Of a stretch of 64,000 nt of DNA, positions 6,347-62,660 are shown piece after piece. The notes below the pieces were generated by a model. It searched no databases, was not told where the DNA came from, and was given only the letters and a program-made list of their open reading frames with translations. Source of the stretch: a virus (Duplodnaviria > Caudoviricetes); the IMG/VR virus record IMGVR_UViG_3300020079_000007, positions 96,001 through 160,000 of that record. One strand, given 5' to 3'. Position 1 is the first letter of the stretch. Every line of letters begins with the position of its first letter. Position numbers and translations under genes: made by a program.

Positions 6347-6775
6347 ATGAGAGAACTACAAACAAACTCACATTGCAAAAACTTGATTTTGTATCATCTC
6401 ATCTTCGTATGCAAATACAGAAGAAAATGTTTCTCTAATACTGATTTTGCAGAAAATCTAAAACTTCAGTTTTTTGAAATAGCAAAGAAATATGATTTTG
6501 AAATAGACACAATAGACTTAGATTACTCAAAGCCAGACCATATTCATATTCTTGTAAGAAGTGTTCCTAAACTAAGTCCATTGCAGATTGTAAGAGTTTT
6601 GAAACAGCAAGCAAACTATTGGGCTTGGCAAAACTATGAAACTTACCTAAAACAGTTCTATTGGAGAGCACATCATCTTTGGACAAGAGGATATTTCTGC
6701 TCAACAGTTGGTAATGTATCTGCTGATACATTTCACGAATACTTAGAAAGACAAGGGAGGAATGAACAATGCTAA
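6347..6775 (+). CDS. tnpA: Y1 HUH transposase
   Basis: YHLIFVCKYRR, PDHIHILV (HUH), LWTRGYFCSTVG, catalytic Y in EYLERQ. Confidence 0.95.
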   Translation: MRELQTNSHCKNLILYHLIFVCKYRRKCFSNTDFAENLKLQFFEIAKKYDFEIDTIDLDYSKPDHIHILVRSVPKLSPLQIVRVLKQQANYWAWQNYETYLKQFYWRAHHLWTRGYFCSTVGNVSADTFHEYLERQGRNEQC

Positions 6776-7986
6776 AAGCCTATGAGTTCAGAATCTTCCC
6801 AACAAAAGAACAAGAACAGTTTCTTCTCAAAACTAATGGTCTTTGCAGGTTGTATTGGAATACAGCTTTGGCAAGAAAACAAGAAGCTTATGACAATAAT
6901 GAAAAGTGGAATATTGGAACAGCTAAAAAGGTATTTGAAGAATGTAAACCTGAAGCTATTGAATGGTGTAATGAGGTAGATAGTTCTGCTTTAGCAGCAG
7001 AATGGAATGATATAACTTCAGCTTTCAACAACTTCTTCAAATCTTGTAAAGGACAAAGAAAACTTAGAGTGAATGCTCCAAAGTTCAAGTCAAGAAAATA
7101 CTCTCAAGTTGCTATTACTTGGACTTCAATGGCAAAGCCTAAAATCCTAAAGAACGGATATTTGTTCTTGACAAGAAAACTTGGTCCAGTGAAAGGAACT
7201 TTTCACAGATGGGCAGAAGGTGATTTCAAACACGCAACAATCAAACAAACCCCTACAGGAAAATGGTTTGTAAAGATTTGTGTTGATAAAAAAGACAAAC
7301 CTAAAAATAAAAATGGAAAATCAGTTGGTATAGACTGGAACTGTAGAGATGAAGACTTCATAGTAATGTCGAATGGCACGAAAGTCAAGTGTCCTAGATT
7401 CTTACAAAGGTCTTCTAAACAGCTTAGTCACCAACAGAAGATAATGAGCAAAAGATTTGTAAAAGGTCTTGAAACTCAAAGTTCCAACTATTACAGACAA
7501 AAACAAAAAGTTGCACTTTTGCACGAAAAAGTAACTAATCAAAGAAAAGATTGGTTACATAAACTTTCAAGACAAATCTGTAATGAGTATGAAACTGTAG
7601 TAGTTGAAGACATCAACTTACAGACAATGAGTAAAATGAATCACGGTAAAGTTGTGGGAGACCAAGGATTTGGAATGCTTAGGCAGATGATTTCTTACAA
7701 AGGTAATCTTGTAAAAGTAAATCCAAAAAACACTTCTAAAACTTGCCATAGTTGTGGATTTGTAAATCCAAAAGTAAAAGTTGGTGTAAACTATTGGGAA
7801 TGTCCAAGTTGTGGAGCAACCCACGACCGTGACATAAATGCAGCTCTAAATATACTTTTCAAGTATAATGCTAGCCAGAGCATAGTAGGCAGGGAACGAG
7901 CCGAAATTACAAATGCCTGTGGAGCACCAAGCAGTGCTGTGAAGCAGGAAGTTTCTAATCCATCAAGTCGAGTACTCGGCTCGTAA
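6769..7986 (+). CDS. tnpB: RNA-guided endonuclease TnpB
   Basis: RuvC GIDWN / VVEDIN / HDRDINAALNI intact; zinc finger CHSCG..CPSCG. Confidence 0.95.
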   Translation: MLKAYEFRIFPTKEQEQFLLKTNGLCRLYWNTALARKQEAYDNNEKWNIGTAKKVFEECKPEAIEWCNEVDSSALAAEWNDITSAFNNFFKSCKGQRKLRVNAPKFKSRKYSQVAITWTSMAKPKILKNGYLFLTRKLGPVKGTFHRWAEGDFKHATIKQTPTGKWFVKICVDKKDKPKNKNGKSVGIDWNCRDEDFIVMSNGTKVKCPRFLQRSSKQLSHQQKIMSKRFVKGLETQSSNYYRQKQKVALLHEKVTNQRKDWLHKLSRQICNEYETVVVEDINLQTMSKMNHGKVVGDQGFGMLRQMISYKGNLVKVNPKNTSKTCHSCGFVNPKVKVGVNYWECPSCGATHDRDINAALNILFKYNASQSIVGRERAEITNACGAPSSAVKQEVSNPSSRVLGS

Positions 7987-9328: not shown

Positions 9329-10030
9329 TTAGAAACTATCAAGAAGTGCACTGATTGGGTCGATTTCATTCTTCAACCCAATTCCTTTCATAGTACGATA
9401 ATACCTCGTTAAATTCATATGAGGCTGTGTTCTTGGTTGAGGCACATAAGTCCCATTTGCTTTCTGTTCTTCAATCTTTTTCTGCCACTCAGGTTTCTCA
9501 GACTTACGGCCGTTATTTGCTTCATAAGGTGACAACTTTAAACCGTCTTCACGAAGCTTTTGTCCTACAGGTTTAACTACCGCGCCTGCTTCTTCAAACT
9601 TCTTTATAAAGTCCGGCTTCCCAGGCTGATGTGGGTCTGTAACTTCAAAGTTGTGGTCTCCAAAAAGACCAATCTTTGCATCGTATTTATTCAAGAAAGC
9701 AAGTGTCTTGTAATTGCCACGAATAATCATACCTTCATTTTTTGGGTTATGACACTCACCGTAAATAAACTTTATGTAACCTTCTTCAGGTGTGTTGCCC
9801 ATTCCTTGAAAGTACTGCATATCATCAATGTCAACATCAATGTAGTTGCCTCTGTTTTTTGCAACTGTGATATGCGGCATTATTGCGCCGTCTTTTGTAA
9901 CAGCTTCTCTTTCTGTATCTGGGTTATCTTCAACAGGCTTTGCCTCTTCTTCAACTAAGTCTTTATCAATAAGACCTAATGCTTTGAGTGCTTCAAGCTC
10001 TGTTTCTGAATACCCTTCAATGTCAACCAT
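9329..10030 (-). CDS. Hypothetical protein (start re-called at ATG 10030)
   Basis: ATG overlaps the upstream stop and is preceded by GGAG. Confidence 0.6.
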   Translation of the reverse strand: MVDIEGYSETELEALKALGLIDKDLVEEEAKPVEDNPDTEREAVTKDGAIMPHITVAKNRGNYIDVDIDDMQYFQGMGNTPEEGYIKFIYGECHNPKNEGMIIRGNYKTLAFLNKYDAKIGLFGDHNFEVTDPHQPGKPDFIKKFEEAGAVVKPVGQKLREDGLKLSPYEANNGRKSEKPEWQKKIEEQKANGTYVPQPRTQPHMNLTRYYRTMKGIGLKNEIDPISALLDSF

Positions 10031-10589
10031 TACATATCTCCAAAAATAAACGGATAAACATCCTGTTTCCAAATCTCTTCAGGTGTTCTTCCGTTCAAAT
10101 GAATAAGCTTCTTATCCAAAGAAGACATTTCATATGCTCTTTCGAAAGCAGCAAGTTCTTGCTTCTTCTTATCAACGTCAAGTGAGAACGACAAGCCATC
10201 GCCTCTTTTCTTGTCTCTTTCAATAACTGCTTCAGGCGTATCAGTAAACACAATCAACTTTGTTACTGGGTTGTTGTGATTTACATAATCTCTTTCATAA
10301 TCGAAAACAAAGTCACCTGAATAATTACGATAGATTGGTGAGTAAACGGTTTCACCAAGATGTGCACGGTCAAATATCAAAACATTTTCATTTGGCACAA
10401 CTGACATCAAGTGGAACATTTCACGATAACGAATCTGTGAAGCAACTTTAATTGCATCATTTGTTTCAAGTTTAATGTTTGAATAATGAACAATGTGAAC
10501 AGCTTTGTTTCTTTTTTCACATTCTTTTTCAATAAGAGCAATTTGGGTACCTTTACCCATTGCATCTACCCCTCAACGATGATGTTCAT
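10030..10589 (-). pseudogene. Thymidylate/dNMP kinase-like gene with a 1-nt frameshift in a G4 run (10569-10572)
   Basis: ATG AAC ATC ATC GTT GAG GGG TAG; adding one G gives MNIIVEGVDAMGKGT (P-loop) joined to the 176-aa ORF containing FDRAHLGETVY. Confidence 0.75.
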
Positions 10590-10705
10590 CGTAACCCCCT
10601 TCGGTACTTTTCTTCATACCTATCAATAAATTTTATTTCATTATTATCGTGAAGCATTTTAATTTCTTCATCTGATAATTTTTGAGTGCTGTTTTCTGTT
10701 TCTAT
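10586..10705 (-). CDS. Small 39-aa ORF starting at ATA, coupled (ATGA) to the kinase
   Basis: IETENSTQKLSDEEIKMLHDNNEIKFIDRYEEKYRRGLR begins 5 nt after a GTTAATAT motif. Confidence 0.35.
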   Translation of the reverse strand: METENSTQKLSDEEIKMLHDNNEIKFIDRYEEKYRRGLR

Positions 10706-10719
10706 AATAAATATTAACC

Positions 10720-12054
10720 TCAGTCTTTAATAATTCTTCTTCCTGCAGGAGCCGCAGTTCCATTCAGCTCTCTTTCACGAGCATCAATTACTGGGCCAAA
10801 TGTATCACAAATGAAATCGCCGTTGAAGTATTTATCTTCAAGAATATCATAAAATTGTTTCAACAACTTTGCGTATTCATCGCGGTGTTCATACAAATAA
10901 TCAATCTTTTCCCACATTTCTTTAGGAGAAGAAACTTTTACATAATCTGGGAACTCTTTGAAGTAACCATCAGTGTCATAAGAGTTCTTGTCATAAAATG
11001 GAATAATTCCATAGTAAACCATTTTCCAAGGCTTCTGTGTTACAAAGTTTGGAAGACGGTGGTCAAATGCAGGAACATAAGTAAACATTGTTTCCCACAT
11101 TTCAGGCTGCATCTGCACAATACCTTTTTCGATAAAAGTATTAGGATGCTTCTGCTTTGCTTCATCACCCCATTTTCCGTAAACCTTTTCCTCAGGATGA
11201 ATATCAAGAACCCACTTTTCAAGATAAGACAAACGGTCAGTACCGTCATTCAAAGTAAGAACAAACTTTCTCTTTTTCTGATAAACATTTCCGTTTACTT
11301 CAATGTGGTCAGGATTGCTGAAATCAATCTTTGGCATATTTGCCATAAACATTCTTTCAAGTCCTGCATATTTGAAATGTAACTTGTGTTCAACATACTC
11401 TCCCGAGTTGTATCTTACAAGACGCTTTACTGAATACTTATCGCTCTCAATCTGAGAGAATGTAAAGATTTCGTGATTGATAATGTCTTTATGATTTGAT
11501 GGCACATATCTTGGGTCTTCATTGATATTATACCAAGGGAAGCCTTGCTTGTTCAAAAGATGTATCATTGGTCCACAATAATTTGCTGCCATCTGCATTG
11601 GGATTGCCTCAGTTGGCTTTGTTGCACAAATAATACCTTCGCCGCCGACTGATACTGATGCATCAGGTCCTTGCATAAAGAGACCCATATCAAACTTCAA
11701 ACCAAGATGGTCAACATATTCATCAAGTGTACGCCAAGCTTCACAGCCTTTCTTGTGTGTATCAGTTCTTTCCTTGCATTTTTCTTTTCCTGCAAACTCT
11801 CTTGCCTGAGCGTGCAAGTCGATAATGTTGCTTGGGATGTCAACTTTCTTAAAAACGTTTCCAAATCCGATTGCACTGTTCTTCTTTTTGAAATCAGCAA
11901 AATCAGAAGCGCCTATAATGTAGAACTTGTGTTGAGGATAACGGCGAGCAAGAGTAAAATAAAATATCTTCGGACTATCGTCGCCTGCATAAATCGACCA
12001 AGACTTTTCATCAAAGTACATTGAACGACCAAACTTTCCAATCGCAATATTCAT
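10720..12054 (-). CDS. DNA glycosyltransferase, T4 beta-glucosyltransferase-like (GT-B)
   Basis: MNIAIGK start; PNFVTQKPWKMV..IPFYDKNSYDT..VSSPKEMWEKIDYL..FYDIL resembles the BGT C-terminal region as recalled (NFITLRVWE..DEEFDT..). Confidence 0.65.
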   Translation of the reverse strand: MNIAIGKFGRSMYFDEKSWSIYAGDDSPKIFYFTLARRYPQHKFYIIGASDFADFKKKNSAIGFGNVFKKVDIPSNIIDLHAQAREFAGKEKCKERTDTHKKGCEAWRTLDEYVDHLGLKFDMGLFMQGPDASVSVGGEGIICATKPTEAIPMQMAANYCGPMIHLLNKQGFPWYNINEDPRYVPSNHKDIINHEIFTFSQIESDKYSVKRLVRYNSGEYVEHKLHFKYAGLERMFMANMPKIDFSNPDHIEVNGNVYQKKRKFVLTLNDGTDRLSYLEKWVLDIHPEEKVYGKWGDEAKQKHPNTFIEKGIVQMQPEMWETMFTYVPAFDHRLPNFVTQKPWKMVYYGIIPFYDKNSYDTDGYFKEFPDYVKVSSPKEMWEKIDYLYEHRDEYAKLLKQFYDILEDKYFNGDFICDTFGPVIDARERELNGTAAPAGRRIIKD

Positions 12055-33269: not shown

Positions 33270-36200
33270 ATGATGAAAAAAGGTCTTACATTTATAAGTG
33301 AAAGAACAGGTCAGCTTAGATATTCTGACATTGCGACAGAAGAACAGTGGATTCAGCAAACAAGTACATACATTCCAATTCAAGCTATCAAAAGAGGACA
33401 GCCTGTTTCAATTGCAACAAAAGAAGACTTGGAAATTGTTGCAAACGGTGATGAGGTTTTGTATGAAGCACTCCTTAATTCATCAGACTCTTATGTAGTT
33501 TTAACAAACCCAACAAGACATACAAACACAATCGGTCTTGCATTGGAATATACTGACGGACATCACGAGATTGTTGATGGAGAACTTAAAACTGCCCCAA
33601 AGATTCACATTATCAACAATGGTAAATACATCGAAGATGCTAACTATTACGCACAGGCTTTTACAGAAGAAGATTCTTATACAGTTGCGGGTGATGCTGA
33701 CTCAGAATATGAGGAATATTGGCCACCATTTTTTGATGATTATGAAAACTCAATCGGTAAGAAAATTTATGTAAAAGGCTCAGCTGATGGTGAACTTACT
33801 CTTGTAAAAGAAGAAGCATATCTTGCTCACAACAATGTTATCGTTCTTGGTTTTGTAACAGACGCTAAACTTAAAAATAAAGAAAATGAAAAAGATGTTG
33901 GAGCAATCGAAGTTCAAGTACAAGGTGATGACCGCGGCCTTATTGATGCAACAATCTTTGAAGCTGTTGTAGGTGAAGACTTCGTTATTGGCGATACAAA
34001 AGTTCAAGCAAACGGCGAAACAAACTGTAAGACAAAAGTATTTGCTTTAGGTTCAGAAGATGATGAAATATTTGAGTTCTCATTCAATATCAATCAGCTT
34101 GTTAATACTCCAATGCCTAAAGGTTTTATCGCTCTTCAAAGAATTGACGGTAAAACATATATCATTCAGACAAATGGCGAAATAAGTGAAAGTCTTCTCA
34201 ATGAAGGTGAAGCTTACGATTATAATGACCGTGCTTTCTATCAAGTTGCAAAGTATTATGCTGCAAATTATAACGAGTCAATTGAAAAGGTAGACCTTGC
34301 TGTTACTGAAGCATCAGCAACAAACTTGATTTCAAAGTTGGAAGCTGAACTTAAAAATGCAATGGCTTACATCTCACAAGGTGAAAATGTTTCATTAAAA
34401 GATGGCCATACATCAAACATTACAGACCTTGACTTTGATGAGTCTGAACTTGGAACAAAGCACCGTCTTATTTGTAGAGCAAATGACATTGGTGGTTATT
34501 TTGATGTTTATGTTTCATCAAACTTAACAGGTATTTTATCTGACCTCAATATCAAGTCACACGGTTCATTCTTCAACAGAGGATACGCTGTTCTTGCAGA
34601 TATTCGTAATCCTAAGAGACAGAACATTATCGGTATTTACAACTCAGGACATACTGGACTTGTAAAGAAAGGTGAAAATGCAATCTTCTTAAAGCAGGGT
34701 CTTTTCAGAGATTACTCAAATCCTTTTGAAGTAGGCGAAAGATATTATCTTGGTTCACACGGTAACATTTTCAAAGTTCCTCAAGAATACTACAACTCAA
34801 TCATCTCAATTGGTTATGCACAATATAAAGATGCTTTAATTGTTGATTGTTGCGATGTAAGACAATATAACAACGGTGACCTTCCTGTAGGTTATATGAA
34901 GCCTTCTATCAAAGGTGAAGCTGAATTCGGTTTCTTATTGATGAACGGTGAGCCTGTAGAATATGAAGGACACGAACTTCTTTATAAGAGACTCAAGAAC
35001 TGGTATGATGAAGCTGACTTGAAGCTTGGTTCATATTACTTTGGTGAAGTAGAGAAGACAGGATTTATTATTCCAAAAGTTCAATATCAAAAACATACAG
35101 GTGAAGAAGAGTCTTATACTCCTGCGCAGATTAAATGGCTTGCAGAAGGCGTTTATAAAGAAATGCCAAGAACGCCTTTTGTTCGTCGTTTCGTTGATAT
35201 TGATTATCCAAAGCAAGTTATTGATAATAACGGAGAAGAAGAGGAAATCATCTTAGCACATCAGGCAAGAATACCTGACATTGATATTACTCCTCTTATG
35301 ATTTATGGTCCTGAAGAAGACCGTTTGCAAATCCCAGATTTGGAAAATCTTGACATCAAGTTCTTCGCTGACTTGTCAGATGGCAACGTTCCTGAATGGG
35401 TACAAATTGACCCAGGCTTCCATTCATTTGATGCACTTACATACTTTGGTTATAAGTGGACTGTAACACAAACTAATGAGCCTTCTGACTCAAATCCTTA
35501 CGGAACTTGGGTATTGAGAGCAGCTTATAACGGAACACAGGGACCTAACGAAGTTGACAATGATGATACTGCTATGGGTATTTGTTATCAAGCTGACCCA
35601 TTCTCTCCACCTGTTTCACTTGCAGGTCGTCGTGCAAGAATCTTTGTTGTAAAACACGATTACTACTCAAGACAATTTGATGTTGAAGCTCTTTTCAAAG
35701 ACTATGTAAAAGAGTCTTTGGTTGATGCAACTGACCAACCTTGGATAAGCCACGCAATCTCCGGTAATGCTGTTCGTCAGGACCTTTACAGAAGAGTTTA
35801 CACAAAAGACTTGTTGCTTGGTTCAACTGAAAGAAGAGCTGATGTAAATGGTTATATTCAGTCAATCAGATTAAACGGTGAAGCTCTTGAGAACGAAGAT
35901 GAGTTGGCTGCATATACACTCAACACAAATCTTCGTTTGAAGAATCCTGCAAATGCAAATGACCAAGCTCTTGATTATTACAATGGCTTATTAAAGTATT
36001 ACTATCAGAATGAAACAGAAGATAGCGCAATATCTCACAAGGCAAGTTTACAAACAAAAATCTTAAATGAGCCTTACGCATTGCTCCCTTCTTATATGTT
36101 CAAAGCTCATAAAGAGTTGTTGGTTAAAAATGCAACAGCAAAAGACTTTACAGATCATCCTCACGGAATTGTAAATGATGGTTATGAAGGCAACCTCAAT

Positions 36201-39200
36201 GCAAAAACTTTACAATCTGCAAACTTGGGTTACCCACAGCATATCTTGTCAAACAATGTAACAGATGATGTAAACGAAGTTTATGTTGAAAAAGAGAACG
36301 CTGCAATTGCAATCACAATTCCTTATACACAAAAGACTACTACAGGTGATTACAGAACTCGTCTCGGTAACTTGACAGAATACAGAGACGCAGACGGTAA
36401 CCTTATAAGACATACAATCAAAACTTACGGCAATACTTCTGAACTCGTAGAAGATATTGATATTCATAACGGCTTTGACTATGTTCAGAGAATACGCGGT
36501 AATGTTGGCGGCAACAGCAAGTCAATGAATATTAAGTATGGATTCTCTGACGACAAACACGATATAACTTTTGAAGATGATGACGGAAATCCATTAAGCT
36601 TGTATGGTACCTTCGTTCAGACATCTTCAATTAAAAAGAAGTATGTTCTTTCAAGATTTGAAGGTAAGAACTCTCCTGCTATCGGAAGTGAGTTCTCAGA
36701 TAAATATATCGGCAACGGCAAAGAGCAAGTATTAAATGAAGCTTTGCAGGCAATTTATGAAATGCCTCTTGCAACATTCAAATACAACAGAGAATACTTA
36801 TCTGAAGATCCTTGGTACAAGAGATACTTCGGTATTATCGTTGAAAGAATTGCCGCAACAAAAGATAACTTTGCAAGTGATGCAGAGTTGACAAATAAGA
36901 CTGCATTAGACGAAGTTGAATATACTTATACTGATGAAGAGAAAGCTTCTATTGCAGAATACCTCAAACTTGTAACTGACAACCCAGAACAGGGTATGCG
37001 TGAGTCAACTGTTATTGGTATTCTTTTGAAAGCTGCAAAAGAAACACAGGAAAGATTACTCAACCTTGAAGTATCAACATACGGTAAGGATTCTCCTACA
37101 CTCCCAGGTGAAGATGAAAAGAATCCAAACTTTACAGCAAACGACCAAAAGTCAACAATTGCAGGTCTTAACCGTTTGGTTAAAGCATTGTGTCGTGAAG
37201 TATTCCAGAATGCTGACCCAACAAATATCAATGAACTTGGCGGTTGGTCTGAAGATGGTGAAAACTACTCACGCCTTGACTTAATTGACAAAGAAGTAAA
37301 CGGTGAGGCTGCAAAGGATGATAATCAAGAAAGAATCTTCCTTGCAAAGAATATTGGTAAAACATATCCTGATGCTGCAGATATTACAGAAGAAGCCGTT
37401 CCTAATGAAGCACTTGTTCCTGATGCTGAAAATGATAACGACTTCGGAAGTGAAGATGCAGTTAAGTACCCAACAGATACAACATATACTCCAAACCCAG
37501 AAGAGATTGATGACTTCGATGGCATTAACGATGCAATCAACAGAATCGTAGCTAAACTCAATCAGCTCACAATCAACATCAACGGTGAGGACGACATCAA
37601 AAAGAATCCAAAGAAACTTGATTACATTCGTGGAACTTTGGTAACACTCCTTCGTGATGTTTACTCTGATGGTTCAGTTGATGAGGTTGAAAATGGTATA
37701 TATGTTAAGAAAGGTCTTTCAAGAATTGATAAGATTCTTCAGGACCTTTACAACTTCGATTTAACTTACGGTGCAACAAGAGCAAAAGTAAATACATATA
37801 ACGGTAAAGATTTGTATGGTGTAGAAAATAATGAGTCAGCAAGTACAGAAATGATTGACTCATTCAGTTCTCGTTCACCTGAAAAGATTGAAGATATTTT
37901 TGGCAAGGCATCAATTCTTGATGTTATAATTGAACTTCTCTCAGGTAATGAAAACAACTTGGTTAAGACAAAGTTGACACCTTGGAAAGACCTTGCAAAC
38001 AATGAAAACAATTGGAAAGTAAATGCAGACAACACAGTAGCAACAACATACGACAATACTGCAGAACTTACAAATAACAAAAACTCTCGTAATCATTATA
38101 CAGTTCTTCAGAGACTTGACGACATTGAAAAAGCATTGACTTTGATGTTCTCAAGATTTGCAAACAAAACTGACTTCACAAAAGATACTTCTCGTGTTGG
38201 TGAAGGCGCTTATGATGGTGTAACATCAGTTGATGATTATATGAAGTTCTTGAGACGCAACTCAGGACTTTGCTTCCACAGCGCAGGCTTGTATGCAGAT
38301 AAAGTTGAAAACGATGAAAGAACTACTGCAGCTAAAGCAATTACCGCTGAAGATTGGGTAAGACCTGTTCACGATACAGTAGACAACTTTGATGTTTATG
38401 ATACAATTTATGATGCAATCAAACGTATCAAGAACAGTGAAATGAACTTGGGTTACAACAATGCTAAACTCGGTACTGATTATGATACATATAAGAATGG
38501 TAACACAAGAATAACAAAGGATGCTTATGAAACTCTTGCTCCAAACGGCGAAGTTCCAACTCCTGATTATACTGTAACATCTGATATGAGAGCAGTTCTT
38601 AAATTGCTATACGGTTCTGACTTGGCAAATGCAGATGCTTCAAACAACAAGACAGGTTCAGTACACTTCAATGTTACTGATGAAGCAAGCGATAACTTCA
38701 AGAACTCTCCTAATGGTGTTTCAGTAATTGATGCATTATATAAGATGTTGTATAATGTGCCTCAAGCTTACAACTACGATGCAGGCGCAGGTACATCATC
38801 AAGATTATCTGGAACAGTTGATGCAATATTTGAAAATGCAAAAGGCTTTGACCCAGCAGTTCCAAAAGCTCATATTGCTGTAGGTGAAAGTGAATCTCCT
38901 GTAGCAGACGGACATCGTAAAGGCTTCATCTTACAAAATAAAGATGGTAATGCTTACAGAAAGAATCGTATTGATGTTCTTGAAGATTGGATAAAAGCTA
39001 TTTACAGATATGTTGGCTTCGGCAGCACAGAAGATCCTTACTACTTCATCGGCGACCTTCACCTTACTTTCGAAGATAGAGATGATGGCGATAAAGATGT
39101 ATTCGTAAATGGAAAACAATACTGCACAACAGCTTACAACAAGAAGTACATCACAGAGTCAGGTAATTACACACTTGCAGAGATTGCTTTACAATCTTAC

Positions 39201-40295
39201 TACAACACACTTAAACTTGAAAAAGTATTAGGTGATGATCCTAACAATTACCCAGTTGATTGGAACTATGTAATTCCTGAAGAAAGTGAAGACTTCAAGA
39301 TTAAGTCAAAAGTTGAAACAGACCCAGATAAGGTTAAAGCAACAGGCGTACACGCTGCTCTTAATAAGCTCTACTCTTATATCAATAAACTTGATGTTGC
39401 GGCAATTGATATTGACGAAAGACTTCAGCAATATGCAAGAGACAATGACAAAGAAGTTAAAGATATTAAAGATGAAATCGGAGCTATCAAAGATGAGATT
39501 GGCACAAAGCCTACAGAATCACCTATTGAAGCAGAAACTCTTTGGGGTGCAATTGAAGAGACAAATGTTGCAAACCGTTTAGTTGACGATGTAAATGCAA
39601 ACCTTCAAGTAGCTGATGAGGAAACAATTGTAAAGAATGATGCAACAGAACAATCTGACAGCAATGTTGTAACACCTGCTGCTATGAAAGCTTATGTTGC
39701 AGACATCGTAGAACAGTTGAGAAAAGAATACGATGAAAAGTGTCAGCAAGTAAAAGAACAGGCAATCATCCTTGCATATCTTAAATGCAGTAACATTACA
39801 GTAATCTCAGATAAGACAATTCAAATTGACCACAATGGAGAAAATGAGGACTTCATTTGGGAAGAAGGACATACTCCTAATATAGGTGCTCTTGAAGTTG
39901 TAGGTCCTGTATCAAAGAGATTTGGTAAAGAAATGCGCAAGATCCGCATCATCGATAATGAAGACAACATTACATATGAAGCTTGGTTCGACTATGTTGA
40001 AAAAGAATATAGCAGCAGCTCATCTTACAAACAAAACTTCCTTTTGGGAACAATTGATGTAGGTAACCGCTTAACTCCGGTTATTACAGAGAATAACATC
40101 CAAGGAAATAACTTGAGTCCTGTTATAGAGGAAACTGTTGAGGTTGGAAATAATTTGTCAAGTGTTATCACAGAAGATGTTGAGAACGCTAACAACTTAA
40201 ACCCAGTTATTACTGAAAACAGTCTCACAGTAAATAACTTGACTGTAGGTGATGATGGTGTGACAAATAATTCAACAGACAACTCAGGAGAATAA
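33270..40295 (+). CDS. Giant tail fibre-like protein with tail-collar domain and internal S74 chaperone-like domain
   Basis: Collar LPVGYM..GFLLMNG..LLYKRL (~34880); S74-like TSSIKKK..ALQAIYEMPLATFKYN..FGIIVE..LLKAAKETQERLLNLE (~36620-37070). Confidence 0.65.
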   Translation: MMKKGLTFISERTGQLRYSDIATEEQWIQQTSTYIPIQAIKRGQPVSIATKEDLEIVANGDEVLYEALLNSSDSYVVLTNPTRHTNTIGLALEYTDGHHEIVDGELKTAPKIHIINNGKYIEDANYYAQAFTEEDSYTVAGDADSEYEEYWPPFFDDYENSIGKKIYVKGSADGELTLVKEEAYLAHNNVIVLGFVTDAKLKNKENEKDVGAIEVQVQGDDRGLIDATIFEAVVGEDFVIGDTKVQANGETNCKTKVFALGSEDDEIFEFSFNINQLVNTPMPKGFIALQRIDGKTYIIQTNGEISESLLNEGEAYDYNDRAFYQVAKYYAANYNESIEKVDLAVTEASATNLISKLEAELKNAMAYISQGENVSLKDGHTSNITDLDFDESELGTKHRLICRANDIGGYFDVYVSSNLTGILSDLNIKSHGSFFNRGYAVLADIRNPKRQNIIGIYNSGHTGLVKKGENAIFLKQGLFRDYSNPFEVGERYYLGSHGNIFKVPQEYYNSIISIGYAQYKDALIVDCCDVRQYNNGDLPVGYMKPSIKGEAEFGFLLMNGEPVEYEGHELLYKRLKNWYDEADLKLGSYYFGEVEKTGFIIPKVQYQKHTGEEESYTPAQIKWLAEGVYKEMPRTPFVRRFVDIDYPKQVIDNNGEEEEIILAHQARIPDIDITPLMIYGPEEDRLQIPDLENLDIKFFADLSDGNVPEWVQIDPGFHSFDALTYFGYKWTVTQTNEPSDSNPYGTWVLRAAYNGTQGPNEVDNDDTAMGICYQADPFSPPVSLAGRRARIFVVKHDYYSRQFDVEALFKDYVKESLVDATDQPWISHAISGNAVRQDLYRRVYTKDLLLGSTERRADVNGYIQSIRLNGEALENEDELAAYTLNTNLRLKNPANANDQALDYYNGLLKYYYQNETEDSAISHKASLQTKILNEPYALLPSYMFKAHKELLVKNATAKDFTDHPHGIVNDGYEGNLNAKTLQSANLGYPQHILSNNVTDDVNEVYVEKENAAIAITIPYTQKTTTGDYRTRLGNLTEYRDADGNLIRHTIKTYGNTSELVEDIDIHNGFDYVQRIRGNVGGNSKSMNIKYGFSDDKHDITFEDDDGNPLSLYGTFVQTSSIKKKYVLSRFEGKNSPAIGSEFSDKYIGNGKEQVLNEALQAIYEMPLATFKYNREYLSEDPWYKRYFGIIVERIAATKDNFASDAELTNKTALDEVEYTYTDEEKASIAEYLKLVTDNPEQGMRESTVIGILLKAAKETQERLLNLEVSTYGKDSPTLPGEDEKNPNFTANDQKSTIAGLNRLVKALCREVFQNADPTNINELGGWSEDGENYSRLDLIDKEVNGEAAKDDNQERIFLAKNIGKTYPDAADITEEAVPNEALVPDAENDNDFGSEDAVKYPTDTTYTPNPEEIDDFDGINDAINRIVAKLNQLTININGEDDIKKNPKKLDYIRGTLVTLLRDVYSDGSVDEVENGIYVKKGLSRIDKILQDLYNFDLTYGATRAKVNTYNGKDLYGVENNESASTEMIDSFSSRSPEKIEDIFGKASILDVIIELLSGNENNLVKTKLTPWKDLANNENNWKVNADNTVATTYDNTAELTNNKNSRNHYTVLQRLDDIEKALTLMFSRFANKTDFTKDTSRVGEGAYDGVTSVDDYMKFLRRNSGLCFHSAGLYADKVENDERTTAAKAITAEDWVRPVHDTVDNFDVYDTIYDAIKRIKNSEMNLGYNNAKLGTDYDTYKNGNTRITKDAYETLAPNGEVPTPDYTVTSDMRAVLKLLYGSDLANADASNNKTGSVHFNVTDEASDNFKNSPNGVSVIDALYKMLYNVPQAYNYDAGAGTSSRLSGTVDAIFENAKGFDPAVPKAHIAVGESESPVADGHRKGFILQNKDGNAYRKNRIDVLEDWIKAIYRYVGFGSTEDPYYFIGDLHLTFEDRDDGDKDVFVNGKQYCTTAYNKKYITESGNYTLAEIALQSYYNTLKLEKVLGDDPNNYPVDWNYVIPEESEDFKIKSKVETDPDKVKATGVHAALNKLYSYINKLDVAAIDIDERLQQYARDNDKEVKDIKDEIGAIKDEIGTKPTESPIEAETLWGAIEETNVANRLVDDVNANLQVADEETIVKNDATEQSDSNVVTPAAMKAYVADIVEQLRKEYDEKCQQVKEQAIILAYLKCSNITVISDKTIQIDHNGENEDFIWEEGHTPNIGALEVVGPVSKRFGKEMRKIRIIDNEDNITYEAWFDYVEKEYSSSSSYKQNFLLGTIDVGNRLTPVITENNIQGNNLSPVIEETVEVGNNLSSVITEDVENANNLNPVITENSLTVNNLTVGDDGVTNNSTDNSGE
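40062..40240 (+). repeat. Coding tandem repeat, 14 aa (42 bp), ~4.3 copies
   Basis: GNRLTPVITENNIQ GNNLSPVIEETVEV GNNLSSVITEDVEN ANNLNPVITENSLT VNNL. Confidence 0.8.
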
Positions 40296-48476: not shown

Positions 48477-51400
48477 ATGTACACAAGCAACTCAGAATTT
48501 GATTTAGAAACAAGAGTTCAAATCACTAACGAAGTACCTGCTGTAAGAACTTTCCAGCAGATGCATCATTCATTACAAAATGAAACTTGGAAATGGCTTA
48601 TCGGAACAGAAGATGTAGATTACGACTTACCTGTAGGTGGTAAATACATTGAAGGCGTTGATGCTGACGGTAACCCAGAAACAAGAGAGCTTATCGCACC
48701 ACCTGTTAAAATTGTAAATGGAAAACAGGCAGCTTCTTACGGCCCAAGTAAAAGTGAAAAATGGAATCCTGATACTGAATCTTATGAAGAGTATGTTCCA
48801 AAATTTCATAGAACAGAAATCAAAGGTACACTTACCGTTGAGCAGGACTTGTTCTTACACGAAATTTATCGTTACCTCAATTGCATTTACCCAGATCATC
48901 CTGATTGGTTGAACTTGCTTACAAGAAACGAAGTTCTTGATGCTTTCAACAATGCTGCTGCAATGGTTGATTATAAACCTAATAACGAGTTCTTCAAACT
49001 TGTTGCAGACTCTATCGGCGACGTTGATGGCTCAGAAGAGTTTAAGCTCAACCTTCGTAACTTGACATCAAATGCTGCAAGAAGAAAGTTCTTTGGTTCA
49101 ACATTGGGCTATCGTATGACAGGACACGATGCATACGAAGACATTATGGTATTCCCAATTGGAAAGAACTTGACAATTGCTCCAATGATGGGTACTGACT
49201 CAGGCGAAACAAATTCAAACGGTGAAGTACTTTACAAGCCAAGTGATATTCCTGTAAAGAATTACATCATTGATACTTTTGATGAGCGCTATCAAACATT
49301 GTTCCGTCGTATTGACTTCAACGGTGATAGCCGTGATACATCATTCGTATCATCAAATTCTGTTATACTTCCTGCTTATACACTTCCTGGGTATGAGGAC
49401 TTTGTATTTGAGTTTGTTTCTTCAAAAGATGGCTACTCAACTTTACAAGACCACAAAATATATAAAGAAAATGATTTCTCATTCTTCACAAATCATAATG
49501 AAGACATCGTAGGTTCGATTGCAAACTTAAAACAATATAATGTTATTGAGCCAAAAATTACAACAGTTGATGACAAGAACTATGTTGAGTATGTTTCTTC
49601 TGATGATAAAGTTTATGGATTCCAATTGTCTGTTTTATCAAAACCTTCATACTTGAAACTTTATAAGTATAAAACAATTGATGAACTTGAACAGTTCCAA
49701 AAAGACCATAATCTCGACACAACAAACATTAAAAACTGGGATATGGCTTTCGGGGCAGACGGAAAAGCAAACCGCACAAAAGCATTCTTCTCAGAATACT
49801 TAAGACCTTTATTCCACTACTGTGCTGGATTTGATGCTCTTAAAGGATATGAATCCCTCAGAGATACAGTTGACTACGCATACAACTCATTCGTAAAAAA
49901 TACAATCGTTCTTCCTCCTGAAGAAATGATTAAACTTTATGGTGAAACAGAATTTGATGAAGGCGTTACAGTAAACAAAGTATCACCTGAATTGATTGGC
50001 ACATCACTTGAGAAAGGTGACTTCATATCTTTCGATGATGCTTCAATGAAGAGTACAACAACTTATGAAGTTGTAGGCGCTTCTTGGGGTGTTCTTGAAG
50101 CAACATTCCACCACGATAAAAACATTTCAGATTATCTCGCAATCAAAAATTATTCACCTTTCGATGAATTAAACGATACAGTTGTATCAGATGATAATTC
50201 TGCAGTCGTTGTTCAGAACAGAGATGGCGATTATATCGTATTACACGGTTCATTGAGATGTTTCTGGAAAACAATGTCTCAAGGGCCTTTCACAGCTTCA
50301 TATCTTGACTCAATCAAATTTGTAGTTAAAGCTATCCCAGAAACAAAGTCAGAACAATTGTTCCGTACTATTTATGGTGATGACAGCTTTAAGTTGATTG
50401 ATGAAATCAATGAAGAGATCTTGCAGTATGATAGAGATATGGCAAGAGCTCGTGCTTTAATAAAACAAGTTGAAAATACTCTTACTGATACACCTCTTGA
50501 AACATATGAAGAGTTGTCTGTAAAAGAAACACTCACTGCAGAAGAACAAGAAGCCCTTGATGCTGCAATTGCAAAACTTGAAGAGTTTGCATATTCTTAT
50601 TGGTCTGATTACAAAGCTGCTGAAGAAAAAGTAAAAGATGCAACTGAAGACCTTGTAAAAGCAAATACAGAACTTGCTCGTCTTAGAAAGAATAAAGAGC
50701 TTCTCTTAAAAGATGGCGTTATATCTTTTGGCTATGATAGCAAAGTTGTATTCTTGGGACAGGTTGGTGACCAAGGCATTTATGGTAAATATCAATTTTT
50801 ATTAGACTTTGGACTTGTTGAGAGCTTCAATCTTGGTAATGTTTCAGTATTGCCTATTGACCCAATGAACGGTGCAATCCCAATGGAAAGAAACTATGTA
50901 AATGGTGACTTTGAAAAAACTTACTATCTTGCACAAGTTGACCAAAGCAAGTTGATTAAAGACACATCACAGATTGGACAACTTTACAGCAACATTCTTG
51001 ATGATGATAGAGCTCTTGCATTTAAGTCAACAATAAAGTTTGAAGTATATAATGAAAAGACATACACTGTAACTGCACAGGTATTTGTTGATAAGAAAGC
51101 AAATCAGGTAACCCACGAAATGCAGTTCTTGACTGACATGCAAAGGAAAAAGTTTGAGTCTATCAGTGTAGGTTCAAAAGTTCGTGGCCCAGGTATTGGT
51201 AACGCTTATGTTGTATCTTTAGGAAACAATTCATTAACATTGAACACATCAATTCCTAAAGGCGGCTACTTGACATATCATTTTGAATGCCCAGTAACAA
51301 CAACACCTAACGAGATTAAAGATGACCCATTCAATTACAAAAGAGTAATGAATGACTTGGGTATTTATGATAAAGTTTCTTTCTTTGACCACGGTGTATA

Positions 51401-54400
51401 TGGCACAAAAGAATGGCCTAATGTTTCAGCCGTTGTATTTGATGGTGACTTAAGAGATAAACAGATTCTCAACCCTAAGACTTTCCGTCAAGTAGTTAAA
51501 TACCTTTATGGTGATAAACTTTCAGATAACCCTGCAGAGTACTTAACGCCTTCAATTGCAAAATACACAAGAGATGTATTCGTTGATATTAAGGCTGATA
51601 AGTTGATTAGTTCAAAGAACTACAACGGACATACAGAAAACTTGATGAATGTTGATTGGCTTGACTACATTCAAAATAATAATGAGCTCCCTCTTGCAAA
51701 AGAAAATGTAAATGTTGGTGCAAACGTTATCTTGAACACTGACTTGTCAGGTTATGCATCTTTGATTAAAAATGCAAATTACACAGATGAAAAGTTGAAG
51801 ACATTGTTCCAAACAAATAACTGGGATGATACAACAATTCCTGCTTATGTTCAGATTGGTACTGGCGGTAAGAATTATAAGTCTTACTTCAAGTTGATGT
51901 CGGATATTTTCTATCCTAACGTTTATGGCGCAACATTCTGGGATCATCAGATTGAGCCAATTTTAGGTGGTAACCCTGAAGACACAATTGATGATTGGAG
52001 AACAGTCGGTGAAATAAAGTTGAAGAAAAGATCAACTTATTCAAAAGTAAATACTTTGGCTGATGCTTCTTCAGTATATCACACATACGAAAACATTGAC
52101 AACCCAATATTTGAAATTCCTCTTAATGAATACAACATTCAGTTGAAGACTTTCCAAAATGGTAAGACTTATACAATCATTGATGCTTTGTTCTATGAAC
52201 AGGGATTTAAGAACATCACAAAGAAGAATGAGTTGAAGATTTCAAAAGCTTCTGAATTGTACTCAAACTTCATTGACGCATATCCTATCGTATCAGACCT
52301 TAAAGATTCTATCGCTGACGGTATTCAGTATTATTATTTTGCAGATGGTTCAAAGTACGGTGAAAAGAAAGCCGACCTTTGGTTCACAAAGAAAACTACT
52401 GCAGAAGGTACAACACAAGATAAAGTTGATAGAGAGTCAAGAGAATTCAACAGATACACAAGATACGACATTTATAACGGCGGTGTTTTTGGTTCTCAAT
52501 TGTATCACTTTAATACAATTTTCTATGACATCTTAGGTGCAGGACTTTTCTCAGATGTTAACTACCTTAAACTTTATAATGATGGCGTTCTTGCCGACGA
52601 TAAAGATACTCGTATTGCAAACTTCTTAGGTTTGTCTCATAATGAAATCTTAAGACGTCTCTTGATGCTTAAGGCTTTCTATAACAGCAACAGTTCAAAC
52701 ATTGATAAAGCACTTAAGTATAAAGCATACATCATTCGTAATGTTCAAGTATTCAATTCTGTTGAAGAAGCTAAGGCAGCTATCGACAATGAAAAACTTG
52801 GCATTAAAAGTAAAAATGTTACAGAGTATTCTATCGACGATAAGAAAAATGGTAAATATGCCATTACAGGTGATGGCACAGAATATATCGTTGATAGTAA
52901 TTGGAATGAAACATTTGAAGATAAGTTGATTTTGTTCTCTTACATAAAAGGTGCTTGGGACACAAAAGATGATAAGCCTGCATCAGAAACAGATCAGACA
53001 ACAAACAACTATGAAAGCAACAGTGAGCTTGATAAAGAGCTTCCTGATTTCTTTGGCCTTAAGTCATATGATACACTTGGTATTTTCTGGAATGGAACTT
53101 CTGCTGAACTTATCAATGTTCACAAGAACTACACAATTTGTACTACTGACGCAATCAAGCCTCTTCCTCTTATTACAAAAACAGAAGAGAACTTATATTA
53201 CGGATATTTCAATCGCCCAATCTTTACAGTATACAGCAAATTGCGTATCACTGCTAAGCAAGATAAATCTGCAAGTTCAGGTGAAGGACAGTGGCTTGCC
53301 ATAAGTCACGATTTAAGTAATTGGAATATGGACTTGGGTAATTCATTTATCAATTACTCATACATCATTTTCAACATCATTAAGTTGCCTAGAAAGTATA
53401 TCGCAAACGGTTCTTATGACATCAACTTATTTATGGACCCACAATTCATTGGTAGAGGTTATAAGTTTGATGATTATATCAACGGCAATAAGAATAATGA
53501 AATTGATTTTAACATTTCACAGTCAGCTATCAGATACGATAGAGACCATAACACATTCTATACAATCGCAGCTCCTGTTGTAAAAAATGCAGATGGTAAT
53601 GAATCATTCGCATCAGAGAATGAAAAGATTGCAATCAAGTTTGAGGAACAGAAGTATTTCAAAGATTTGAAGTTCTTGTTCGGTTCATATCAAACAAGCA
53701 ATACACAGTTTGAAGGTTCAACTGATATTACAAAAGAAGCTTATATAAAAGGCGTTGCTTTGCAGCCTTTCAGTATCTCTGACCTTTCAACATCTGATAA
53801 GTTTGTATCTATCCAAGAAGTTGACCTTCGTTCAATTTATACACCTCTTTTGAACTCAAGAGTATTTGAAGGCACAAGACAATTCTCAGGTGAAGTTTAT
53901 GGTGTTACTGATAAAGGTGAATATTTCGTATCAGGAAAAAGAACACAGCCTTTCTCAAGAATATATGACAAAGATGTTACAACAACATTGAATGATATTC
54001 TTCCTTGCCGCATTGATACTGACGGTAACATTATTAAGTTGCCTGAGTATGATAATGTAGGTGTAAACTTTGATGATCCAAACACAAATCTTGTTGCTCC
54101 TACATATGAAAATGTATCACTCAGAAAATCAATTGACCCAAGATATATTGTTTCAGATGTACCTGAGTTTAAGTATTATAAGAACCTCTTGGTATTTGAA
54201 GGTCTTATCAATCTTAAGAAGCCTAATGCAATCGAAGCTCCTGTAGAAGACCCATCAACATTCAACCTTGTTCTTCAAATGTTGAATGGCGGAGACACAG
54301 TTGAAGGTGCAGTTTGCCTTTCAGGTGGTTCTTACGCAACACATACAATTACAACAAACATTGAAGAAAAAGCATTGTTTGTTGCTGTAAACGGAAGTGA

Positions 54401-57400
54401 TGTTCAAGTTATAACTACATCAGGTGTTTGGAAGAATGATGAGCCTATCAACTTCGATGCAGTAAATAATGCAACATTCAGCAAAGTTGAAGGTATTCCT
54501 GAGCTTGAAGGAACAGTTACAAATGTTATCTGGGATGAGGACCTCAACTCATTTGTTGCAACTCTCGGAAGAAGTCCTTCAATTGGACCTAATGAAACAG
54601 ATGACTTTGGTCTTATGTATTACAAATCATCTGTGGCAGTTCAGTTAACTCCTGTACCTGCAGGTGAAAAACCTATTGAAGTTTACGCATCATTGTTTGA
54701 TACAAACATTGAGAATTGCTTCAGACAAAGAGAAGATGGTATTTATATTTGGAACGACCTTTCTCACGGTCTTCCTGTAGGAAAGATTACTGATGGCGAC
54801 AACATAATTGAGACTGAATTGGTAAATCCTAACGATGTTGCATTCCGTATTTACAGAACAAATCCTAATGCTGAAAATACTGCAGGCAAGGAAAAAGAGA
54901 TTTACGGTACAGGTGATTTAGGTAACGGAACTCACCTTGTAATGAAAGAAGGTCCTTATATCCCAAGAATACCTGAAGAAGGTGAATTGCTTCATAGATC
55001 TTTGTTCTCAACTGATGATATTGATATTGCTCTTATGGAAGAGTACATCTTTATCAAGTCAAAGAACTACCTTGTTGATAGTGAAAACAATTATACTCGT
55101 ACTCTTTCAACAAACAGACACTGGAAAGCTACAAAGTTGCCTGAGATTTTGGATAACACAGAACTTTTCTTGAAGTCACATACTCTTACAGGTTCAAATT
55201 CTGTTTACGAATATGTTAAGAAAGTTTACAATACATTTGCAAGTTGGGCTTTCCAAGATGACGCTATAATTGAAGGTGAAACTGAGGGTGAGGTAACACT
55301 TGCAGGACTTAGCCTTGATAAAGCATATAAGAGAGAAGACGTTGAATACTTCAGAAATGCAGTTAAGGATTATATGGAAAATAAGTTCCTTGACTACAAT
55401 GCATTCAAAGCAAAATGTAAATACTATGATGAGAACGGTGTAGTTGAAAGCATTGAGGCAGAAGGCGTTACAATCCCAGTTGACTCTTCAAATTATACAA
55501 GTCTTGATACTGCAATTGTTAAAGTTGAGTGTGACACAGGTCTTCCTTTGGACGAAAACTTCAGAATTGATACTGATAAGAGCTACAAGATTTCAGGCAC
55601 AACACTTGACTTTGTAATTCAGTCAAAAGTTGCTCAGAACTATGTCAACTTTGATGAAATGTATTATCAGTATGCAACGATTGTAATGAAGTATCTCATC
55701 GGTGAAGTTGAGTCTGAAAACTTTGGTACAACTTGTATCACAGATGTTAAGTCTTCAGGTAACAGATTCTTCTTTAAGACATTTAATGATGACTTCTTCT
55801 ACATTGATAAAGACAAACTTTATAAGTACAAAGACTTCAGCAATATGATAAACTGGAATGTTGCTTTAATGCCTGCAGGAACTTATTTGAGAGGCTCTTA
55901 CGCAAAGACAATAAACAACTTCCACACAGTAACAGTTAAAGGCTCGAACGGTGATGATGTTGTTATCCCAGTAAGTGCAAAGACAATGCCTATTAAGTTC
56001 TTCCGCCTTAAAACAGATATGTATGTATCTCCTGATGGAAAACATATCTTCTTCGGTGGTTGCACAGTTCCTTTCCCAGAAATCAAAAAGGCAGTTTACT
56101 TGGCAGGCGGAGATGACAGCGACTTTATAGAGAACAGATTATTACAAGCAAACCTTAAGTCTTGGATGAACGATGAAGAGAACACAGGTACTGCACCTAT
56201 GGTTTTATATTCAGACGATGCAGGAAAGACTTTCAAGATTCTTCCTATTAAGCAGTTTGTTGATAACAGCTTATTCTCAAATGACAACTTTGAAGTTGCT
56301 TCATTCAAAGAATACGATGATAAGTTGCTTGCTTTCGTTAAGAAAACAAATGGCGGCTTTGAGTCAAGTCAGATTGTAATTTCATTCAACACTGCTACAG
56401 GTGATGTTGATACAGAGTCAACTGTTTACCAAGCAATGTCAATCGCTGATAACGGTAAGTTACATACAACTCCTGCAGGAGACGGTACTCTTACTTGGTC
56501 AGACGGCGCACTCGGATTTGGTATTGACATTGATGCATCAGAAATGAATGGCTCAGGTACATTAAACTTTGACTGGACAGGTGCCAACTCATTGACAATT
56601 CCAACAGGCCTTGCAGTTAAGAGCGCAACATCAAACGCAGTTCTTTTGAATAAAGGCTTTGCTTCAGGTGATATTCCTTCAGGTAAGTTGAGAGCATTGT
56701 TCGCAATCTCAACAAAAATGGATATTCCTCAGCAAGTTCAGTTCTTGTCATCAGACCCATTAAAGTTGAATGAATATAAGAACCGCACAACAGGACTCTT
56801 TAAGGTTCCTACAACAAAGCCTGTTCAGAATGAAGCTTTGGCCGACCGTATTTATTCACCAAGATACTTGAGTGCAATTGATACTCAAGATAAGGACATC
56901 ATCGGATTCCCTAGAGTTGATGAAGATGTAAGCCATACATATTATGAATATGACATTGATGAGAACGGAAAGATTGGTGATGTTAAGCCTCTTAAGAACA
57001 CATTTGGTAATGAAATCAAATTGTGTACAGAAGACGGCAGCAAATATGTATTTGATAATGTAGATGTTTCTGAAGGAACAACTGTTACTCCTTCAATGCC
57101 TCAGTCATTGGAAGATATGATTGATGCAAACATTGATGTTATGTTTGCAAAAACAGCAGGTAAGAATAAAGTATCTGCTAAGTCTGCATTATCAAACATC
57201 TCAACAATGGACATTGATAATGAGTTAACATTCAAGAAGAACGAGAATGGTGACGCATATACAGATGAACATTATTCTTATACACTTAGAGCATTTGATA
57301 TAAACAACAATAGTGCGCTCATTAAGCCTGAGTACAATCCTCTTGAGATTGCCGACATCTTGTCTTGTAAAGTTGACTTTACAACAGATGAAGAAACAAC

Positions 57401-61827: not shown

Positions 61828-62037
61828 ATGGGTATGGAGTGGTATTCTCAAGGTAAAAAAGAAAATAATGTTGTAGACCCTTGGGAAAATGTAACTGAAA
61901 TGTGTGATGTTTGTGGAAAAGATATACCTGTAAGAGAGACTCAAAGGGTTGTTTGGTTCTCTCTTACCGGTACTAGGTATGTTATAAGAAAACATCCTTC
62001 TTGTGATCCAATGCAAATAATTCAGTACTTAAGTTAG
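61828..62037 (+). CDS. Small Zn-finger-like protein
   Basis: CDVCG...HPSC; start directly after ACTAATT. Confidence 0.5.
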   Translation: MGMEWYSQGKKENNVVDPWENVTEMCDVCGKDIPVRETQRVVWFSLTGTRYVIRKHPSCDPMQIIQYLS

Positions 62038-62660
62038 TCTTTTATGATACGACGCGCAGGAGCTTCTGCCTTTCTTTCTTCTTCTGATATCCAATCCAAA
62101 ACAAGTTCACCTTGTTCATCGAACTTACAATCATAATAAGCTCTTGATGCCATATAATCAGCGTAATGCAAAACCCACTCGTCAAACTTTCTTGGCTGTT
62201 CGTTTTCAAACCCAGGCATCTGTCTTGATGTTATCCAGATGCCCTGATGTGCAGCAATCAAACGCCCGATTGTTTCAAAGCCGTGTTCTTTACAATAATC
62301 ACCACCAAGCTTTGGGTGGTCGAAAGCAGTGAACTCGTGGTCTCTTCCTTCAGGATACTTCCACATATCGTGCAAGATCGCAGCAGCAACCAATTCATCT
62401 TTTTCACTTTCAACTGCAGGTGTTGCACGAACTAAGTCAAGGACATTTCTTACAACAACTTTGATGTGGCGGATAAGTCCACCTTCGCCTGAAGCAGACT
62501 TAAGATGATACTTACCTGTTGAAGATGCTGGCTTAATACGATGATCTGGGTGGACATCATCAAGGGTCTTGCGAACAAAGTTGGCAATCTCGATGTTATC
62601 AATCTGAGCAACTTCATAAGCAAGCAATTCATTTAGTGTTCGATCTTTGTAGTTAACCAT
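62034..62660 (-). CDS. HD-domain phosphohydrolase
   Basis: PASSTGKYH..GGLIRH, ILHDMWK, HQG, HYADY; start re-called after GAGGG. Confidence 0.85.
   Translation of the reverse strand: MVNYKDRTLNELLAYEVAQIDNIEIANFVRKTLDDVHPDHRIKPASSTGKYHLKSASGEGGLIRHIKVVVRNVLDLVRATPAVESEKDELVAAAILHDMWKYPEGRDHEFTAFDHPKLGGDYCKEHGFETIGRLIAAHQGIWITSRQMPGFENEQPRKFDEWVLHYADYMASRAYYDCKFDEQGELVLDWISEEERKAEAPARRIIKD

Follow-up and report, generated by a model that had tools for sequence, protein, structure and literature searches.

A terminal GRRII peptide on replication proteins and accessory enzymes of an uncultivated jumbo phage: a putative replisome docking motif

That a sliding clamp can act as a tool-belt is textbook knowledge, and peptides that bind the clamp from the very end of a protein chain are known from several systems: from gp43 of the bacteriophages T4 and RB69, from archaeal PolB and the large subunit of archaeal RFC, where they form C-terminal PIP boxes, and from Escherichia coli Pol II and Pol IV (C-terminal) and Hda (N-terminal). 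Here, we describe a short peptide with the core GRRII that ends several otherwise unrelated proteins encoded in or close to a 64,000-nucleotide stretch of viral DNA (the window), positions 96001–160000 of a 188,745-bp IMG/VR viral contig from an uncultivated jumbo phage (IMGVR_UViG_3300020079_000007). The tail is carried by a DnaX-like clamp loader, the C-terminal piece of a split family-A DNA polymerase (PolA), an HD-domain phosphohydrolase and a putative glycosyltransferase (GT), and in all likelihood it serves to dock these proteins on a receptor that they share. By analogy with the systems above, that receptor may be the phage's own DnaN-type beta clamp, an assignment for which we consider the chances to be even.

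The clients of the T4 and RB69 clamp gp45 (gp43, gp33 and gp55) resemble the proteins described here in that a terminal peptide behind a flexible linker is common to the polymerase and to unrelated proteins, and in that both clamp and clamp loader are encoded by the phage. The T4 motif, however, is of the hydrophobic and acidic LDFLF type, gp45 is trimeric and the polymerase belongs to family B, whereas here the peptide is basic with an Ile-Ile pair, the clamp is of the DnaN type, the loader of the DnaX type and the polymerase a split member of family A, and it is by analogy that the tail may bind the clamp. In archaea, as here, one peptide closes both the polymerase and the clamp loader, but the PIP box has the consensus QxxLxxFF, the clamp is PCNA and the organisms belong to another domain of life. 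The bacterial clamp-binding motif QL[SD]LF or QLxLxL (Pol II, Pol IV, Hda, delta and MutS/MutL) has in common with the present case a beta-type clamp that serves as tool-belt, many clients and a position at either terminus; GRRII differs from it in lacking both Gln-Leu and an aromatic residue, and in having two near-invariant arginines.

A DNA-modifying enzyme that sits on the clamp and modifies new DNA as it is made is an idea shared with DNMT1 on PCNA and with T4 alpha-glucosyltransferase (alpha-GT) on gp45. The T4 enzyme has no shared tail, whereas here the link would be written in the sequence itself, as a tail shared with the polymerase. Interaction of T4 alpha-GT with gp45 was proposed by Sommer et al. 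(2004), as cited in a 2025 preprint (bioRxiv 10.64898/2025.12.06.692756), whose authors could not reproduce the interaction either in vitro or in vivo. What is new here is the basic Ile-Ile peptide, its pairing with a beta-type clamp and a split PolA, and a glycosyltransferase and an HD hydrolase as clients.

Occurrence and conservation of the tail

The sequence-only reading had picked out the tail on three proteins, and all three copies lie exactly where it placed them. The putative GT-B glycosyltransferase (444 amino acids (aa); open reading frame (ORF) at window 10720–12054 (−), with weak family-level matches) ends with the tail AAPAGRRIIKD at window 10723–10755 (−), its core GRRII at 10729–10743. 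The HD-domain phosphohydrolase (window 62034–62699 (−); Pfam HD, E 2.4e-7; the uncharacterised PHROG phrog_5889) ends EAPARRIIKD, with the tail APARRIIKD at window 62037–62063 (−). The DnaX (gamma/tau)-like clamp loader (435 aa; window 62939–64000 (−) and a further 246 nt past the window end, genome 158939–160246; Pfam DNA_pol3_delta2 and PHROG clamp loader) has bacterial DnaX gamma/tau as its nearest cellular homologs, and its tail AAPVGRRIIQR occupies window 62942–62974 (−) behind an Ala/Pro-rich linker. A six-frame scan of the whole contig adds a fourth carrier, the C-terminal fragment of the split PolA (350 aa; genome 93365–94417 (+), 1.6 kb upstream of the window; Pfam DNA_pol_A, phrog_17), which ends KPARRIING.

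RRII occurs four times in the 58,689 residues of the ~192 genes scanned, and each copy sits within the last seven residues of a C-terminus. Enrichment at C-termini, on which the earlier proposal depended, is therefore borne out: from composition one would expect 0.36 occurrences in all and 0.005 at C-termini, where four are found. Among 5000 draws of random internal 7-mers, a tetrapeptide common to four proteins was never seen. The same holds in a relative, JAZNWZ010000130.1, a complete sequence of 306,108 bp with a 141-bp terminal overlap that had been binned as a contig in a metagenome-assembled genome. It is collinear with the window's contig at ~82–94% nucleotide identity and has five RRII in 95,131 residues, all five terminal; the carriers are the same four C-terminally tagged proteins, the DNA polymerase among them, and a fifth, N-terminally tagged one. 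This fifth carrier is a coiled-coil protein of 226 aa that starts MGEGRRIIKE, with the motif at residues 4–9, and continues into a Pro/Glu/Lys linker. The tag is thus confined to 4–5 carriers among 192–382 proteins, and UvsX, the DnaB-like helicase, topoisomerase IB, SbcCD and a DNA methylase are without it.

A second relative used in the comparison is a 259-kb IMG/VR contig with 53–72% protein identity to the window's phage. All five of its carriers are tagged: the PolA C-terminal fragment with TRRVVNG, the GT with TRRIIQN, the loader with GRRIIRN, the HD protein with GRTIKD and the fifth protein, N-terminally, with MGRTIVE. For the region, the loader and the clamp alike, searches of GenBank phages with blastn and tblastn gave no relative that could be used, and the clade has no cultivated member in the GenBank phage collection searched. 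The window's contig has a G+C content of 36.5% and a CheckV completeness estimate of 65%, and the 180–290 kb segment of the 306-kb relative (~110 kb) is missing from it.

The HD tail is written in the codons CGT CGT ATC ATA, which differ from those of the GT and the loader as the sequence-only reading had said, and the PolA tail departs from them too (AGG AGA ATA ATC). Since the HD and polymerase tails use other codons, the conservation lies at the level of the protein. The GT and loader tails have identical codons at all seven of their shared residues (P ~0.0013 from codon usage), which suggests that one of these two was copied from the other.

Orthologs of the carriers retain the motif to differing degrees. 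It is steadiest in the replicative proteins: [RK]R[IVLM][IV] is present in the last eight residues of 22 of the 26 loader orthologs (97–37% identity), and in 26/26 with a looser pattern, while the PolA C-terminal fragment keeps it in 49 of 63 orthologs (96–51% identity) in forms such as ARRIING, TRRVVNG, GRRIVNG and RRRIISD; shorter and more distant PolA orthologs are without the whole C-terminal extension of ~45 residues. The 20–40 residues ahead of the loader motif are of low complexity and vary in length and sequence, and the motif itself is followed by 0–3 arbitrary residues. The HD tail recurs in three other lineages as KPVGRTIKD (L006), NKPQRRIIK (L015) and APSRRIIKD (the 306-kb relative). 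The GT is tagged in only 6 of its 41 closer orthologs, including that of the 259-kb relative (53% identical, ending PQPTRRIIQN), and on this distribution its tail is one that has been repeatedly gained or lost. Orthologs of the fifth protein (65–96% identity) begin M(x)EGRRII or MGRTI[IV], and because the N-terminal copy is conserved in them, the peptide appears to work at either end of the chain.

Across carriers and orthologs the consensus is [GST]-R-[RT]-I-[IV], with two arginines that are invariant or nearly so, and the Ala/Pro-rich linkers ahead of it are hypervariable in the alignments. The sequence-only reading also depended on the presence of the tail in orthologs from related phages, and there the tail is kept, across 37–97% identity and behind linkers that are not. 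Bacterial-type DnaX proteins have the motif in 0/85 cases and an unrelated control family in 0/61, and the internal background rate predicts 0.0006 motifs per tail. Read from these alignments, the motif is under selection and the surrounding sequence is not. The core of the earlier proposal, a docking signal at the protein level on unrelated proteins, is upheld by the polymerase copy, by conservation in orthologs, by the N-terminal copy and by absence from the controls. Likenesses to further motif classes were weighed as well: APIM ([KR]-aromatic-hydrophobic-hydrophobic-[KR]) was rejected, the RRII tail having no aromatic residue, and AT-hooks, SH3 ligands and the PP1 motif RVxF were set aside as classes to which it might belong.

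Candidate receptors and competing explanations

The mechanism we propose is that G-R-R-I-[IV], set at the very end of the chain and joined to it by a flexible Ala/Pro-rich linker, would be a short linear docking motif by which a few proteins are held on a single shared receptor in the replisome; it is from the patterns described above that we infer any binding by the tail. The core clients would be the clamp loader and the C-terminal PolA fragment, while the HD phosphohydrolase, the putative DNA glycosyltransferase and the N-terminally tagged coiled-coil protein would be accessory clients, gained and lost between lineages. If the receptor is a divergent DnaN-type beta sliding clamp, it would act as a tool-belt: the polymerase would ride the clamp, the loader would be held nearby, and the HD hydrolase and the glycosyltransferase would be concentrated on freshly made DNA.

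The clamp is favoured as receptor because the polymerase and the loader share a terminal peptide in a phage that has a beta clamp of its own, as in T4 and in archaea. Features of known clamp clients recur here, namely a short terminal motif behind a flexible linker, a copy on the polymerase that is shared with unrelated proteins, and a cognate clamp encoded in the collinear relative. This clamp is an acidic protein of 407 aa that starts MKFTISKAEL (L032:2088-3311) and lies in the segment of the 306-kb relative that is absent from the window's contig. Its ESM-Atlas neighbours include viral clusters with PF00712, PF02767 and PF02768 (the three DnaN Pfam domains), its top Foldseek matches are all bacterial beta clamps (E ~1e-8), and VIA-align superimposes it on DnaN domain I with Z ~12 and a root-mean-square deviation of 2.6–3.1 Å over 105–113 residues. 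In the structural model the secondary-structure pattern of the clamp topology is repeated three times, and on these comparisons the protein is identified as the phage's own divergent DnaN-type beta clamp. The 259-kb relative, with its five tagged carriers, also encodes an ortholog.

Several observations weigh against the clamp. The motif, basic and with an Ile-Ile pair, fits no known clamp consensus (QL[SD]LF, QxxLxxFF or the T4 LDFLF). On the window's contig, the Pfam models for gp45, DnaN (N and C domains) and PCNA find no clamp, and PHROG and Pfam annotation of ~60 further proteins gave none. The clamp model has a mean pLDDT of 48 and is confident only at residues 1–120 (domain I); scans of viral and metagenome sequences added only orthologs at 63–66% identity to the alignment, and the model therefore stayed poor. 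In tail-less distant records, which are mostly fragments, the clamp family is undetected, and so is the family of a second candidate receptor, a 240-aa protein encoded beside the loader; co-occurrence therefore does not separate the two.

A further point of this kind is a second terminal tag, which looks rather more like the classical motifs and could be the one that the clamp really binds. M-x-x-ELFESIL or QLFENIL opens at least nine small proteins (60–230 aa) of the 306-kb relative, for example those at L033:11286-11690 (−) and L033:11700-11948 (−). On the window's contig, two unrelated proteins end SK(K/T)(Q/T)LFDKLL(N/E)E, at genome 75295–76119 (−) (= L012:15295-16119) and 173140–173562 (−) (= L014:3140-3562), and one of the two also starts NKEQLFESLLNE; QLFDKLL-x-E likewise ends the 306-kb relative's ortholog of one protein of the window's contig.

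Docking on a replisome hub other than the clamp is the alternative that survives best; we judge it unlikely on balance, with a substantial chance of being correct all the same. The hub could be the DnaB-like hexameric helicase, a phage single-stranded DNA-binding protein (SSB), or the 240-aa or 93-aa protein of the loader operon. Bacterial tau tethers polymerase and helicase through its C-terminal part, and in the phage loader the tau-type C-terminal part is replaced by linker and peptide. The phage's DnaB-like helicase ends in the acidic stretch SSDEESSES (Ser/Asp/Glu), which could attract a basic peptide and so also speaks against the clamp, and a distant relative's helicase ends EEDDELSDSTDDY, which could do the same; in T7, the tail of gp4 attracts gp5. 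The invariant Ile-Ile pair, however, suggests a hydrophobic pocket and not tail-to-tail electrostatics. An SSB hub would suit the HD protein as client in the manner of the T4 enzymes of dNTP synthesis, which are thought to gather on gp32, but in known SSB hubs the tail sits on the SSB and not on its clients; SSB tips are acidic and hydrophobic (DDDIPF type), whereas the RRII tail is basic and on the clients. The Pfam SSB model has no match on the contig.

Within the loader operon, the 240-aa protein is encoded immediately upstream of the loader and just past the window end (genome 160296–161018 (−); L004:2796-3518). It keeps its place beside the loader in each of the four RRII lineages compared, which makes it a candidate receptor at the clamp's expense, and its model is confident (pLDDT 93.5) with a helix-rich alpha/beta fold that is without counterpart: no Pfam, PHROG, meaningful PDB or named Atlas match was obtained, and its family consists of viral hypothetical proteins only. 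The order of genes in T4 had suggested that this protein might itself be the clamp, and that identity was ruled out, the confident model not being a clamp fold. The 93-aa protein (window 62653–62934 (−)) is encoded between the clamp loader and the HD gene, lacks the tail and has no Pfam or PHROG match. It is conserved, with orthologs at the same position of 95 aa (L006), 92 aa (L015) and 93 aa (G004), and its ORF overlaps the long reading frame of the HD gene. Because of the L006 ortholog and of this conserved upstream ORF of 93–95 aa, the true start of the HD gene is probably at 62657 and not 62699, giving a protein of 207 aa. Against all of these hubs stands the terminal peptide common to polymerase and loader, which is the classical clamp pattern.

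The sequence-only reading had offered a proteolysis tag as its alternative. Here the tail would be a degradation or remodelling tag for a host AAA+ unfoldase, in the manner of the C-motif 2 of MuA for ClpX, and would set the moment at which early replication enzymes are removed. A basic and then hydrophobic C-terminus that follows an unstructured linker does resemble C-motif 2 (RRKKAI-COOH), reportedly described for ClpX by Flynn and co-workers in 2003. Such a tag calls for a free C-terminus, however, and the N-terminal copy of the fifth protein and its orthologs is conserved; the 0–3 arbitrary residues that follow the motif elsewhere provide no defined free carboxylate context; and the tail is steadiest on the replicative polymerase and the clamp loader, two proteins whose destruction throughout a clade is hard to rationalise. 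Proteolysis is thus disfavoured, and we regard it as very unlikely.

Even less credit is given to an address label that would send proteins to a replication compartment or package enzymes into the capsid of the virion. Shared terminal tags do serve capsid targeting in T4, and the jumbo phage encodes giant virion-type proteins of 2341 and 3911 aa, but just the handful of carriers counted above is tagged, while UvsX, the helicase, topoisomerase IB, SbcCD and the methylase would need such an address and go without it; moreover, we know of no linear import signal for phage nuclei. The tail might, finally, have no function and be left over from a short coding module that recombination spread among genes. 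The codon identity of the GT and loader tails suggests as much, but this explanation is next to negligible, since HD and PolA use other codons, the motif persists over 37–97% protein divergence while the adjoining linkers are scrambled, and copying accounts for the origin of a tail and not for its retention.

A more specific version of the clamp reading can be put forward tentatively, at somewhat less than even confidence: GRRII would be a new class of ligand for the phage beta clamp, and both the HD nucleotide hydrolase and the glycosyltransferase, acting on DNA, would be tethered by it to the moving replisome, so that DNA hypermodification and local sanitising of the nucleotide pool would take place at the fork. 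Were the clamp the receptor, beta-type clamps would be able to read a basic Arg-Arg-Ile-Ile peptide unlike QL[SD]LF, and the rules by which clamp clients are predicted would have to be widened. The polymerase's own tag would then connect two further enzymes, one that glycosylates DNA and one that hydrolyses nucleotides, with the replisome. This would bear on the contested question of T4 alpha-GT and gp45, and would offer an example from nature, legible in the sequence, of the coupling of glycosylation to replication that has long been argued for in T4 and has lately been called into question. The patchy distribution of the GT tag would show how accessory enzymes plug into the replisome, and the identity of the GT and loader codons suggests that this can occur by copying a few codons. 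The tag is also a handle by which more replisome-associated enzymes could be found in this uncultivated clade of roughly 300-kb phages.

The glycosyltransferase, neighbouring genes and other tails

The sequence-only reading had likened the 444-aa protein to T4 beta-glucosyltransferase (BGT). The protein itself has no Pfam or PHROG match, and a PDB profile search with its family gave none. Its 75 homologs come from large viral contigs, and of 43 members of the family, 20 give a weak match to Glyco_transf_10 and 15 a match to Glyco_trans_1_2; because of these two matches the protein is assigned, putatively, to the GT-B type. For BGT membership in particular there are only the weak family matches to GT10 and to a GT1-like C-domain, with no PDB sequence match. 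We infer DNA as the substrate only from the gene context, the neighbours being a HAD hydrolase, a thymidylate-synthase-like enzyme and a dCMP deaminase. Nearby, between UvsX and a 176-aa ORF, a 247-aa protein (window 9329–10072 (−)) without a Pfam match has a long C-terminal part of low complexity and ends NEIDPISALLDSF, recalling the tips of SSBs.

Mobile elements of the IS200/IS605 type are present at two places. One, at window 6347–7986 (+), consists of a pair of genes for proteins of 142 and 405 aa, the larger of which matches the transposase phrog_506; the other, at genome 49182–50528 (+), encodes a TnpB/Cas12f-like protein of 448 aa. The two giant ORFs lie at window 33270–40295 (+) (2341 aa) and 48477–60212 (+) (3911 aa), and the second of these is kept at 35–39% identity in relatives, next to the loader operon.

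Terminal peptides of other kinds were also seen. A third shared tail, the strongly basic K(P/K)KKRGKK, ends two otherwise unrelated proteins of the contig, at genome 83552–84019 (−) (= L013:3552-4019) and 94637–95242 (+) (= L001:8637-9242), the latter just after the PolA C-terminal fragment. More distant clamp loaders have other basic tails, of the types PVRPVRGVKL, TRTLPVRK and VRxVR. A phage with a 429-kb contig (L017) also encodes a PDDEXK nuclease with a similar RQVRGLKF near its end, and together these distant basic tails and the nuclease (L017:7553-8434 (−) and 10001-11170 (+); L148:574-1734 (+)) may represent a sister motif system.

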